IMG/VR virus record: IMGVR_UViG_2698536337_000009
Source of the DNA: a virus
Lineage: Duplodnaviria; Heunggongvirae; Uroviricota; Caudoviricetes
DNA: 4,583 bases
Direction: 5' to 3' (one strand)
Shown one piece after another: positions 31 through 4,583 of this stretch. A program made the position numbers and the translations under genes. Every line of letters starts with the position of its first letter. Position 1 is the stretch's first letter. Under the pieces are notes generated by a model. That model searched no databases. It saw only the letters and a list, made by a program, of their open reading frames with translations, and was not told the DNA's origin.

Positions 31-77
31 GAAGTGGTAAAGAAGATAATAAAGAATAATATTTAGGGTTATAGGTC

Positions 78-293
78 TTAGCCCATTTTGAAAACAAAAT
101 ATGCTACTATTGCACTTAATATGAAGGAAATGAATAGAAATATAGATGTTGATGTTTTTAGATATTTTTCAGGAAATAATGGGTGAGCAATAATGTATAC
201 AAGATTAAGTAGTATATAAATTGCTACCGGAATGAAAATCATGCTCCAGTGTGTATCTTTTTTGGGAGGGATTGGCTGCAAATAATCAGACAC
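78..293 (-). CDS. Hypothetical small membrane protein with two predicted transmembrane helices (71 aa from GTG at 293, or 54 aa from ATG at 242)
   Basis: Open frame in AT-rich DNA, where stop codons are frequent. Two hydrophobic stretches (WSMIFIPVAIYILLNLVYIIA and IFLFISFILSAIVAYFVF) are separated by a short polar loop. It lies 82 bp downstream of, and on the same strand as, the 125-aa ORF. The start is uncertain: GTG at 293 lacks a clear SD, and the internal ATG at 242 has a GGAG only 1 nt upstream. Confidence 0.4.
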   Translation of the reverse strand: MSDYLQPIPPKKDTHWSMIFIPVAIYILLNLVYIIAHPLFPEKYLKTSTSIFLFISFILSAIVAYFVFKMG

Positions 294-375
294 CGTTTTT
301 CCATCAGTTTCAAGAAGAATTACTAGATCTCTTACTTCACCACTGACTTGAGTGCATCCTTAGTAGTAATGTTAA

Positions 376-753
376 TCATTTTTTCCCTCCAAATACGATG
401 CCCTCTACGTCTTTGGAAGCTTTTTGTGATGACCACTCCTCTGAATCAGGTGATTTAATTAAAAATATTGTATCTCCATCAAAAATCGTATTTGTTCCGT
501 AAAAATTCACATTTGATAGATCACCACCAAAAACCCTCTGCCCACTCGAGGTAATTGCCTCACCTAATTTAGTAAAATTACCAGCAATAGATGATTTTCT
601 TTTTCCACTTCTATTCAAAGTGGCTTTAATTACACCACCACCATCCTTAGAGTTAAATAATTGAATGTCCACTCCAGCAGTTGGTTGTATATATTTTGAA
701 AGCTCTTTCTTGAACTTGTTAATATATTTATCTTTGTTTTCTTTGTTGGTCAT
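376..753 (-). CDS. Hypothetical 125-aa soluble protein, Lys-rich N-terminus, Gly/Ser-rich body, no Cys, no signal peptide; family not recognised
   Basis: A 378-nt open frame in a region of roughly one-third G+C, unlikely by chance. ATG at 753-751 follows an in-frame stop. Codon usage is AT-rich and consistent with the neighbouring membrane-protein ORF. The SD is weak (GGA about 10 nt upstream). Confidence 0.55.
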   Translation of the reverse strand: MTNKENKDKYINKFKKELSKYIQPTAGVDIQLFNSKDGGGVIKATLNRSGKRKSSIAGNFTKLGEAITSSGQRVFGGDLSNVNFYGTNTIFDGDTIFLIKSPDSEEWSSQKASKDVEGIVFGGKK

Positions 754-906
754 TGGTTAGATCCATAGTTCTGGCTGTGATTAGGTGAAAGTATACAAGG
801 TTTTTAAAGCGAAGATCACTGTTTTGGCTTCAAGATAGTTTTGATTTATCGTAATCAATCCGCCATAATCCTCTCATCGGAGCCTGAACAACTCCGGTGA
901 CTTCTG

Positions 907-2891: not shown

Positions 2892-2908
2892 TATGCCAAT
2901 TGTTTACT

Positions 2909-2943
2909 AAAAATTATTAAAAATGGGGCGTTGCAACGCCCCC
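2909..2943 (-). terminator. Rho-independent terminator on the minus strand (likely nmpC/IpeX terminator)
   Basis: An 18-nt perfect palindrome GGGGCGTTGCAACGCCCC (2925-2942) is followed, on the minus strand, by ATTTTTAATAATTTTT. On the plus strand the hairpin is followed by CAAAAATAAA, so it is unidirectional. Confidence 0.5.
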
Positions 2944-3079
2944 AAAAATAAAGGGTAATATATAACAGAAGGTTTATATAGTTAGAAGCAAGGTTGTGCT
3001 CCTAAAGGAAGTGGCTTGAGGGAGCCACTTATATGTTGGGGAGGCAAAGCCTCCCGCAACATATCTTTTAGTAATCAAA
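2909..3079 (-). ncRNA. ipeX: Structured 3' UTR of nmpC; likely counterpart of the DLP12 sRNA IpeX
   Basis: About 170 nt between the nmpC stop (3080-3082) and the minus-strand terminator carry two further stable hairpins (3031-3064 and 3009-3030). From memory, IpeX is a DLP12 sRNA mapped immediately downstream of nmpC, between nmpC and quuD. The 5' end cannot be set from sequence. Confidence 0.35.
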
Positions 3080-4162
3080 TTAGAACTGGTAAACCATACC
3101 TACAGCAACGATATCATCGGTAGCAACGCCAGATGCTTTCGTGAAATCGCTCTTATCAATCAGGTTGATTTTGTAATCAACAAAAGTGGACATATTTTTG
3201 TTGAAGTAATAGGTTGCACCTACATCAATATATTCAACCAGGTCCTGATCACCCCACGCACCCAAGTCTTTTCCTTTAGATTGCAGGTAAGCAACGGACG
3301 GACGCAGACCGAAGTCGAACTGATATTGTGCAACTACTTCGAAGTTTTGTGCTTTGTTGGCAATATGGTTATTACCAAAAACAGTCATGTTCTGGGTTTC
3401 AGAATAGGTGGTAGCCAGATAGATGTTGTTCGCATCATATTTCAGACCAGCTGCCCATACTTCAGCATTTTGACCAGATGCATTCAGGCTGTTGTTACCG
3501 TAGATAACCTGATTATTAGTGCGGTCAGATTTAGCATAGGTTGCACCTACACCGAATCCTTCATACTCATAAGTAGTGGAGAAACCGAAACCATCACCAT
3601 TAGCTTCAGTTACGTCAGTGCGGTCATTTTTACCCTGATACTGAGCAGCAAAGTTCAGACCATCAACCAGACCAAAGAAGTCGTTGTTACGATAAGTTGC
3701 AACACCAGTGGTGCGACCAGTCATGAACACATCTGTTTGAGTCCAAGTGTCACCACCGAATTCTGGCAGGACGTCAGTCCACGCACCGATGTCGTATGCT
3801 ACACCGTAGTTACGGCCGTAATCGATGGAGCCGTAGTCACCGAATTTCAGGCCAGCGAAGGCAAGACGGGTTTTATCTTTGGAGGAACCTTGAGATTCAG
3901 CGCGGTTGCCTTTGAATTCATATTCCCACTGACCGAAACCAGTCAGTTGATCGTTGATTTGGGTTTCACCTTTGAAGCCAAGACGGGCATAAGTAGTATC
4001 ACCATCATCTGCATCATTAGAGGAGAAGTAGTGCTTAGCATTAACTTTCCCGTACAGATCCAGCTTGTTACTGTCTTTATTATAAATTTCAGCTGCCTGA
4101 GCAGACATCGCCATCAGTACTGATGCAGCTACAGCAGAAATTGCCACTGTTAATTTTTTCAT
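3080..4162 (-). CDS. nmpC: Outer membrane porin NmpC (OmpC/OmpF general porin family), intact, 360-aa precursor
   Basis: The protein has a classical signal peptide ([23 protein letters not shown], then AEIYNKD) and porin hallmarks throughout. It ends in the canonical C-terminal ...VGMVYQF and closely matches NmpC as I recall it. The start is chosen at ATG 4162, at the signal peptide; the ORF-track start at 4222 is a 20-codon upstream extension. Confidence 0.9.
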
Positions 4163-4552
4163 CGTGAGCCCTTTTTTTGAACTATTATTAAAAAATGATG
4201 TCATTGCGCGATAAATATTCATCTAATCAATGTGATTATTTCAAGATGTAAGTTTTGGTTTCTCGTTTGATTTGTGAAGTAGATCTCTATTTTTATCTGA
4301 ACTTTTTTCTATCGAATCCTATTCATGGCTCTTGACTGAATAAAAATAAATCTATTAGCCAATTTATATTAACGGCTGTTATTTATAAGTGCTCTATAAT
4401 TTGAAGGTTCAATTTAAACCGGCTAAAAATAACACTGGAAATTATTTGTTGGTTATTTGTTGGGATTTGCTTATGTATTTGTAGTGGTGTTTTCAATACT
4501 CGGTAGCATTCTCGCAAATATCATTTAGTGGTTTACGTACGTAAAAAATTGG
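4163..4552 (-). promoter_or_regulatory. AT-rich nmpC 5' leader/promoter region, truncated at the IS1 junction
   Basis: A 390-bp strongly AT-rich non-coding stretch upstream of nmpC with no convincing ORF on either strand. It contains a TTGAAA -35-like element (minus strand) and an 11-bp tandem repeat at 4442-4463. The exact promoter cannot be assigned by eye. Confidence 0.3.
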
Positions 4553-4583
4553 GGTAATGACTCCAACTTATTGATAGTGTTTT
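4553..4583 (-). mobile_element. IS1 terminus (right inverted repeat end); the element body lies right of the window
   Basis: Positions 4553-4583 (GGTAATGACTCCAACTTATTGATAGTGTTTT) match the IS1 IRR and adjacent sequence read inward from the terminus. The element boundary is at 4552/4553, in the same orientation as the IS1 at the left edge. Confidence 0.85.

Follow-up and report, generated by a model that had tools for sequence, protein, structure and literature searches.

The locus described here raises the question whether two adjacent open reading frames (ORFs) in the AT-rich part of a prophage segment are a working gene pair for a soluble and a membrane protein, and, if so, what kind of system the pair represents. 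The locus occupies positions 78-753 of a stretch of 4,583 bp (IMG/VR virus record IMGVR_UViG_2698536337_000009, Caudoviricetes), which is referred to in its whole length as the window. An original prediction, made from the sequence alone, placed two co-oriented ORFs on the minus strand there, and both have been confirmed, at 376-753 (125 amino acids (aa) from ATG) and at 78-293 (71 aa from GTG, or 54 aa from an internal ATG). The AT-rich character of this part beside G+C-richer nin genes, also pointed out there, has likewise been verified: the G+C content is 0.30-0.37 across 1-900 versus 0.52-0.59 in the adjoining ybcN/nin genes. We found that window 78-753 holds, in decayed form, an operon of two genes, called A and B below, which is conserved and moves horizontally.

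Gene A (376-753, minus strand) is intact, as judged from its ORF, its PHROG match, identical relatives and the ratio of nonsynonymous to synonymous substitution rates (dN/dS). Its 125-aa product aligns with phrog_18061 over the full length (E 9.3e-85, residues 1-125 on profile positions 1-125 of 125), and the identical protein is encoded by Escherichia coli A7 and 536. In the intact form of the pair, gene A has 378 bp (WP_000182282.1). The exact protein was found on at least 1,000 contigs, many of them from Shigella sonnei. It has a mass of 13.6 kDa and an isoelectric point of 9.5, and the features read from it at the outset are correct: a Lys-rich N-terminus, richness in Gly and Ser, no Cys and no signal peptide, there being no N-terminal hydrophobic stretch; the rest of the protein is free of hydrophobic segments as well. 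An AlphaFold model lays it out as helix, hairpin, helix, hairpin and helix, with a Gly/Ser/Lys-rich centre (48-84) that is predicted to be disordered. Among 86 members of the A family, residues Y10, G39, F84, G86, T87, K100, W107 and D115 are near-invariant, and judged from their identity these form no obvious catalytic set.

The TGA stop codon of gene A overlaps the ATG of gene B by 4 bp (ATGA), and GGAGGG sits inside gene A, 5 nt upstream of this ATG. In its intact form, as translated in E. coli A7, gene B has 429 bp and encodes 142 aa (WP_000608370.1). Hydropathy of the intact protein indicates a soluble head of about 36 aa, three transmembrane (TM) segments and a charged C-terminal tail, and an AlphaFold model of moderate confidence (predicted local distance difference test (pLDDT) score 74.3) gives a hairpin-plus-helix head followed by long helices at 46-68, 71-100 and 103-141. 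Enterobacterial copies hardly differ in the head (residues 1-36), and conservation extends to N59 and the aromatic residues of TM1, a basic HKHK loop, the G-A-N-V-G motif of TM3 and the LTQKA..KLD tail. The counts of Lys and Arg weakly favour a cytoplasmic head (N-in) and a cytoplasmic TM2-TM3 loop, and this tendency is clearer in remote homologues.

Compared with the intact form, the span in the window differs by 187 bp, which is the sum of a 186-bp and a 1-bp deletion. The remnant of gene B at 90-379 (minus strand), recognised by alignment, by the intact translation, by a partial PHROG match and by its TM segments and the model, comprises codons 1-97 with a frameshift. The frameshift is due to the 1-bp deletion at 355 (CC to C on the plus strand), which alignment with the intact form places in the GGC codon 9, and translation from the native ATG (379) now yields MINITTKDALKSVVK, 15 residues that end at a stop codon at 332-334. 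The 186-bp deletion has its junction at 89/90 and corresponds to 6060-6245 of the E. coli A7 locus (L001), as defined by BLAST breakpoints against L001 and against the IMG/VR contig L025; it takes codons 98-142 (45 codons), the stop codon of gene B and 48 bp of the downstream spacer. The same segment, flanked by IS1, is found in L025, which matches the window with 100% identity over 4,494 nt but retains the 186-bp stretch that the window has lost. Since the frameshift at codon 9 is present in L025 too and is implied by an S. sonnei annotation (P0141, about 100 contigs), which starts at an internal GTG and has a complete C-terminus, it is not a sequencing error. The 186-bp deletion was found in this window only and is a step beyond the frameshift.

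The ORF at 78-293 is thus the in-frame middle of gene B (TM1 and TM2) reading across the deletion junction, with its final residues, KMG, and its stop codon supplied by the terminator hairpin of gene P. It is without the near-invariant head, without TM3 and its GANVG motif and without the tail. The match of the remnant to phrog_16940 (E 9.1e-43) covers only profile positions 30-98 of 142; the homology is real, and the copy has been cut short at both ends by the frameshift and the deletion. Of the small downstream membrane protein that had been proposed, the two hydrophobic segments are therefore genuine, and the gene of 54-71 aa is not, being a fragment of the 142-aa, three-helix protein B. 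By these comparisons, gene B in the window is a pseudogene and the pair is non-functional here.

Both genes are under purifying selection with dN/dS of about 0.1: between copies that are 66-76% identical in protein, where synonymous sites are near saturation, the ratio was 0.08-0.11 for A and 0.08-0.13 for B. Word-indexed searches returned 13 A clusters and 17 B clusters, all from Enterobacteriaceae, with the two families on shared contigs. An HMMER profile search of 1.84 billion representatives gave 111 A clusters, 30 of them at E<=1e-10, and nearly all were stand-alone proteins of 120-135 aa. Full-length homologues with 20-50% identity occur in several phyla. None of the 185,579 species-representative genomes has the enterobacterial form. 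About 17 remote A lineages were looked up or fetched, and these gave 24 complete loci. They belong to Thermodesulfobacteriota and other 'Deltaproteobacteria', Acidobacteriota, Myxococcota and Bacteroidota (Bacteroides, Flavobacterium and Mariniflexile), together with one betaproteobacterium and marine gammaproteobacteria.

A B-type partner of 125-143 aa directly follows A in all 24 complete remote loci, with an overlap or a gap of at most 9 nt. Each of these partners begins with a head of about 35-45 aa and ends in a charged tail, and two to three peaks are seen in its hydropathy profile. The nearer partners are clear homologues of B (E 4e-26 and 5e-21), and in the farthest the similarity is marginal or falls below detection. 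The head motif EG-x3-E-[IV]-[RK]-D-[FL] ... G ... DY-x2-P is common to the remote partners and B. Co-occurrence of the pair in other prophages, which had been suggested as a check, is also seen, both genes being intact in 15 of 18 IMG/VR prophage contigs; the others have the frameshift of the window (1), a frameshift in TM1 (1) or an IS1 copy in A (1). On this evidence, A-B pairing appears to be obligate. The decay outside the window comprises an independent CC-to-C frameshift in TM1 of gene B (L033, 8370-8810) and the insertion of IS1 into gene A, with gene B intact, in L038 and E. coli CV839-06 (L002, 6830-7687); the latter two cases may be the same event.

One member of the A family has a different partner. 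In P0104, a protein of 447 aa (L013/L014, 246-1589), an A-type domain (residues 7-119) is joined to an HNH nuclease and a C-terminal domain, and the HNH part alone matches nuclease models in PADLOC; the contig ends 77 nt after the gene. In the clade of L017 (258-3051) and L018, the A protein is lengthened to 243 aa by about 115 additional N-terminal residues. Its gene is preceded there by one of 545 aa, for which a sub-threshold match to GHKL ATPases was seen, and the clade could thus represent a three-gene variant. Two irregularities were noticed in the clustered data. Clustering at 90% placed the 125-aa protein in a cluster represented by its unrelated 142-aa partner, likely by bridging through overlapping or fused gene calls. 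P0013 combines pentapeptide repeats with the C-terminal 50 aa of A and probably results from chimeric assembly.

Known families gave little purchase on either protein. Pfam and NCBIfam scans yielded no accepted match for A or B, and sub-threshold hits of B, such as that to 7TMR-DISM_7TM (21 bits, with a cut-off of 29), were rejected as being typical of hydrophobic sequence. In PADLOC-DB 2.0, neither the E. coli proteins (at E<=1) nor their counterparts encoded by loci L010, L015 and L017 (at E<=0.01) had any match. Searches by tblastn of deposited phage genomes and PLSDB plasmids returned no match for A, B or their plasmid-borne relatives. Sequence-profile matches in PDB, to Spc97 (E 9e-4 over 53 residues) and to G-protein-coupled receptor fusion constructs, were judged spurious, and Foldseek searches of the A and B models against PDB and BFVD gave nothing at E<0.001. 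No paper citing the A/B accessions or the PHROG identifiers was found in the literature, where work on lambdoid hotspots and Rex-like systems provided comparators only, and both proteins are labelled hypothetical in every source. The sole catalogued families for them are phrog_18061 and phrog_16940, both of 'unknown function', and the PHROG catalogue records neither the obligate pairing nor the cross-phylum relatives.

That neither protein could be recognised at first sight is therefore borne out by Pfam, NCBIfam, PADLOC and PDB, with the unknown-function PHROGs as the only matches. Since neither homology to a characterised family nor a lack of conservation was found, the core idea of the original prediction survives. 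As for a conflict-type module of a soluble and a membrane protein, the idea is plausible for the family and falls for the copy in the window, which is non-functional as a pair.

The genomic settings of the pair, described here case by case from individual sampled loci, point to mobility. In Escherichia, Klebsiella and Enterobacter it always lies antisense between the replication module and the nin genes, and in intact relatives of the window this is the interval between replication gene P and ybcN/ninB of a DLP12-like prophage. The host prophages are mosaic, with replication genes of O/P, DnaB or DnaC/IstB type and with differing nin genes. The cassette is present in 46 of 5,426 complete E. 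coli genomes (>=99.8% identity in DNA), and its flanks are present in 2,778 of them. On the lambda map the same slot is occupied by ren, and hepS of the prophage Gifsy-1 was picked as a defence candidate because accessory genes often directly follow lambdoid replication genes (PMC13043305). In one enterobacterial prophage, L008 (5665-7348 and 9850-10971), the slot also holds colicin-like, colicin-immunity-like and DndB-like genes, a further sign that accessory cargo gathers there.

Outside these prophages the pair was found on small metagenomic plasmids of ColE2 type with MobC/relaxase genes (L010, 3-1745; L011; L012), on which A overlaps the 3' end of rep by 11 nt. On these plasmids, rep and the pair may share a transcript. 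The gene upstream of A there was considered as a third component and rejected, as it is the ColE2-type plasmid rep itself. In a different temperate phage the pair lies between early genes and lysis/terminase genes; elsewhere it heads islets with PIN, DUF4160/DUF2442 or ParS/MbcA-type toxin-antitoxin genes, and in one setting it adjoins an insertion sequence. In an uncultured Bacteroides genome (L047, 5969-11922) it separates the two genes of a Type III restriction-modification (R-M) system, mod (E 2e-205) and res (E 2e-290), and an SNF2/HKD helicase is encoded upstream.

The cassette has a G+C content of 33-36% in all six contexts measured, with 41-52% in the surroundings. The pair shows two marks of a moron, namely a distinct base composition and a patchy presence at the same slot in close relatives. 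As regards a promoter and a terminator of its own, there is a conserved -10 box and a hairpin with a T-run on the B side, but the -35 region is poor. The candidate promoter lies in the intergenic region at 754-1017 (264 bp), from which gene A on the minus strand and ybcN/ninB on the plus strand diverge, as defined from the ORF map and annotated relatives. Comparison of cassettes identified there the -10-like hexamer TATACT at 790-795 (minus strand), 37 nt upstream of the ATG of gene A, and a box of this kind (TATACT, TATGAT or TATAAT) is kept in register about 35 nt upstream of A in cassettes with diverged flanks. A generic promoter scan called no convincing sigma-70 promoter for the cassette; the box was missed because its -35 is poor.

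The terminator-like element, a G+C-rich hairpin with a T-run at 66-89 between the convergent genes P and B, was identified from its equivalent in L001 and by direct reading. In L001 it reads GGGTTATAGGTCTTAGCCC followed by ATTTT at 6036-6054, and the same bases are found in window 66-89, where they enclose the stop codon (78-80) of the 78-293 ORF. It is possibly bidirectional. In intact relatives, the gap between B and P is no more than a spacer of 78 bp, in which this hairpin lies. Because no more than this spacer separates the two genes, there is no room for a third gene, whose loss had been considered possible; nor is the cassette truncated by IS1, as had also been supposed, since IS1 is inserted in gene P.

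Among characterised systems, the closest analogue in architecture is RexA/RexB of lambda. In both cases a prophage gene for a soluble protein is followed by a gene for a small polytopic inner-membrane protein, and RexB (144 aa) and B (142 aa) are of similar size. The intact form of the pair shows this Rex-type arrangement, which in the window is lost with the decay of B. In the accepted model of RexAB, a cytoplasmic sensor activates a membrane effector that collapses the membrane potential. The structure of RexA is the subject of PMC11077077. There are also differences: RexA has 279 aa and A 125 aa, RexB has four TM segments and B three predicted ones plus a soluble head, and rexAB lies in the immunity region and is co-transcribed with cI, whereas A/B occupies the P-ninB slot with a candidate promoter of its own. 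Homology was rejected by hhalign, which gave a probability of 0.3% for the A family with RexA and 1.4% for the B family with RexB.

Soluble-plus-membrane prophage modules are already a known kind. The gp30/gp31 pair of the mycobacteriophage Sbash, the subject of PMC6426596, has reportedly been established with experimental support as a prophage defence pair of similar logic. In mycobacteriophage Butters, the adjacent gp30 and gp31 are cytoplasmic and transmembrane prophage proteins, which interact and protect the lysogen from heterotypic phages (PMC7542560). These examples come from unrelated hosts and have experimental phenotypes, while A/B is known from its genes alone and is likened to them by architecture only.

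The type V toxin-antitoxin system GhoS/GhoT of E. coli also has a gene for a small soluble alpha/beta protein followed directly by one for a small membrane protein. GhoT, of about 57 aa, has two helices but lacks a soluble head, and its partner GhoS is a ribonuclease that cleaves ghoT mRNA; the resemblance to A/B is again one of architecture. HepS of the Salmonella prophage Gifsy-1 and lambda ren are alike only in sharing the slot after lambdoid replication genes. HepS is a single HEPN nuclease and ren a single small protein encoded on the strand of the early operon, and neither is related to A/B. Class I holins, such as lambda S, resemble B in their small size, their three TM helices and their charged C-terminal tail, and they make lesions in the membrane. 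B matched no holin family in Pfam at E<=5. It differs from these holins in its extra conserved head of 36 aa and in its Lys/Arg distribution, which weakly favours the opposite (N-in) topology; it is also encoded antisense to the lytic operons, far from the prophages' own essD/rrrD/rz lysis genes, and is found outside phages as well. The pair thus belongs to no characterised system and is to be filed only under phrog_18061 and phrog_16940 and as a moron.

What, then, would the intact pair do? We consider it plausible, though short of probable, that it is a mobile-element conflict module operating on a Rex-like logic. A would be a cytoplasmic sensor or regulator that docks on B, either at its cytoplasmic head or at its basic TM2-TM3 loop, and the trigger could be, for example, DNA or a protein of an infecting phage. 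B would then oligomerise through its conserved membrane-embedded Asn residues and the G-x-N-x-G motif and permeabilise or depolarise the inner membrane, so that the infection would be aborted. The copy in the window can do none of this because it is without a functional B. The proposal would be in keeping with the reality of the genes, their obligate pairing and mobility, an effector that seems exchangeable (the HNH fusion), the precedent of the slot, the -10 box of their own, and the conservation of the B head and of polar residues in TM1 and TM3. More doubtful is the wider claim that A/B is an unrecognised, cross-phylum two-gene abortive-infection family, in which A is coupled to B or, when fused, to an HNH nuclease, and which is unrelated in sequence and fold to Rex, Kiwa and the catalogued defence systems.

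Several observations weigh against a conflict role. Many remote loci are flanked by housekeeping genes, such as those for valyl-tRNA synthetase, a CLC channel, GGDEF proteins and ligA, and the embedding in an R-M system and the HNH fusion are each a single case. The AlphaFold model of A is of low confidence (pLDDT 58.5, predicted template modelling score 0.61). In E. coli, H-NS often silences DNA of this AT-rich kind, and the pair may therefore be silent in lysogens. It is dispensable and may be costly, given that B was lost in two separate lineages and that IS1 has landed in A. Finally, the same evidence fits a toxin-antitoxin or addiction module.

In such a module, B would be a membrane toxin and A its soluble antidote or regulator, and together they would stabilise the carrier element by the logic, and in the gene order, of GhoS-GhoT. 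We regard this as unlikely on balance, yet to be taken seriously, given the tight coupling by a 4-bp overlap with the soluble gene first, the position directly after rep on small ColE2-type plasmids and in toxin-antitoxin islets, and the loss of B with A intact in S. sonnei and the window, which is the order expected if the toxin goes first. However, neither protein resembles the toxin-antitoxin families of Pfam, NCBIfam or PADLOC, B with its 142 aa and conserved soluble head is far larger than typical membrane toxins (about 30-60 aa), and the interruption of A by IS1 with B intact (CV839-06 and L038) would be tolerable only if B were silent. Addiction and abortive infection are, moreover, not mutually exclusive. 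Superinfection exclusion, by which B in the inner membrane would act with A to block genome injection without killing, as in the logic of P22 SieA, T4 Imm and HK97 gp15, is quite improbable. A moron antisense to the early operon with its own -10 box would suit expression in the lysogen, the pair includes a predicted inner-membrane protein, and prophage-encoded exclusion proteins of this kind have been reviewed (PMC11436027, PMC10883804); but the known examples are single proteins, an A protein fused to HNH is ill-suited to an entry block, and plasmid, chromosomal-islet and R-M-embedded copies across phyla with different envelopes and phages favour a generic effector.

A role outside conflict, in envelope physiology or stress tolerance or as a helper in the replication or maintenance of the mobile element, also seems improbable. 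The pair adjoins replication genes in two unrelated types of element, prophages and ColE2-type plasmids, many remote copies lie among housekeeping genes and no defence model matches, all of which such a role could explain; yet the prophage copies run antisense to the replication operon, most relatives that share the replication genes do not have the pair, the replication neighbours are of unrelated types (O/P, DnaB-type, DnaC/IstB-type and ColE2 Rep), and a patchy, AT-rich, cross-phylum spread is typical of selfish or conflict cargo. It is very improbable that the window itself holds a functional pair in the literal sense, a 125-aa protein plus a two-helix membrane protein of 54-71 aa. The open frame at 78-293 does have two hydrophobic segments, and an S. 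sonnei gene is called from an internal GTG (P0141), but the fragment is without the most conserved parts of B, its last residues and stop codon are foreign and lie across the deletion junction, a collection of 15 billion proteins does not contain its exact product, and the strong GGAGGG ribosome-binding site serves the ATG at 379, from which a 15-aa peptide is now read. Chance open frames in AT-rich DNA, with no genes at all, might be suggested by the lack of a curated family match, and AT-rich DNA has few chance stop-free frames, only on particular strands; this explanation is excluded for practical purposes because of the dN/dS of 0.08-0.13, the cross-phylum full-length homologues and the conserved gene order with its 4-bp overlap.

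The A/B family is uncharacterised, forms an apparently obligate pair and is unexpectedly widespread, and it is therefore a reasonable candidate for experiments, for which E. coli 536 offers an intact copy. If the intact pair does serve defence or addiction, it would be a compact system, about 800 bp long and with a candidate promoter of its own, that joins a sensor of new fold to a small membrane effector that is also new and that ranges from Enterobacteriaceae to Bacteroidota and Thermodesulfobacteriota. The post-replication slot of lambdoid prophages would then be worth mining for further cargo, as HepS already suggests. For annotation, two PHROGs of unknown function can be recorded as an obligate pair, and Shigella-type copies of gene B, that of the window included, as pseudogenised, for which the label 'hypothetical protein' of 54-113 aa is unsuitable.

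As for the window as a whole, its ends are IS1 termini in the same orientation, at 1-30 and 4553-4583. The first is the terminal 30 nt of IS1 on the minus strand (the reverse complement of the left inverted repeat), identified by direct reading and a scripted match to this repeat and found at the same junction in L025, and the second is the reverse complement of the IS1 right end. The adjoining 31-59 (plus strand) is what remains here of a lambda-P-like replication gene into which IS1 is inserted, namely its final 29 nt with the TAA stop at 57-59; this was recognised by alignment with L001, in which the gene for replication protein P ends at position 6029. With gene P reduced to this remnant of 29 nt, the replication and immunity region of the prophage lies beyond IS1 or is lost. 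From its gene content, the segment between the IS1 ends is a piece of a DLP12-like lambdoid prophage. Because of the identity with L025 and the many S. sonnei contigs with the 125-aa protein, the window is most likely a Shigella-type, IS1-flanked prophage relic, and it is an ordinary case of prophage decay driven by IS1 and deletion. The 4.5-kb segment from the nin genes to the porin gene is bracketed by two direct IS1 copies, in an arrangement identical to that of L025, and recombination between these copies could delete or move it.

The AT-rich stretch is followed by ybcN/ninB (1018-1473), ninE, ybcO, rusA, ylcG, quuD and then a porin gene. The last is a prophage porin gene of nmpC/ompC type at 3080-4162 (minus strand), which is seemingly intact and encodes 360 aa beginning with MKKLTVAIS; the right-hand IS1 interrupts the AT-rich region upstream of it (4163-4552). 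An Rfam scan of the whole window matched no family. The spacer between quuD and the porin gene (2892-3079) contains two strong G+C hairpins, around 2925-2945 and 3035-3060.

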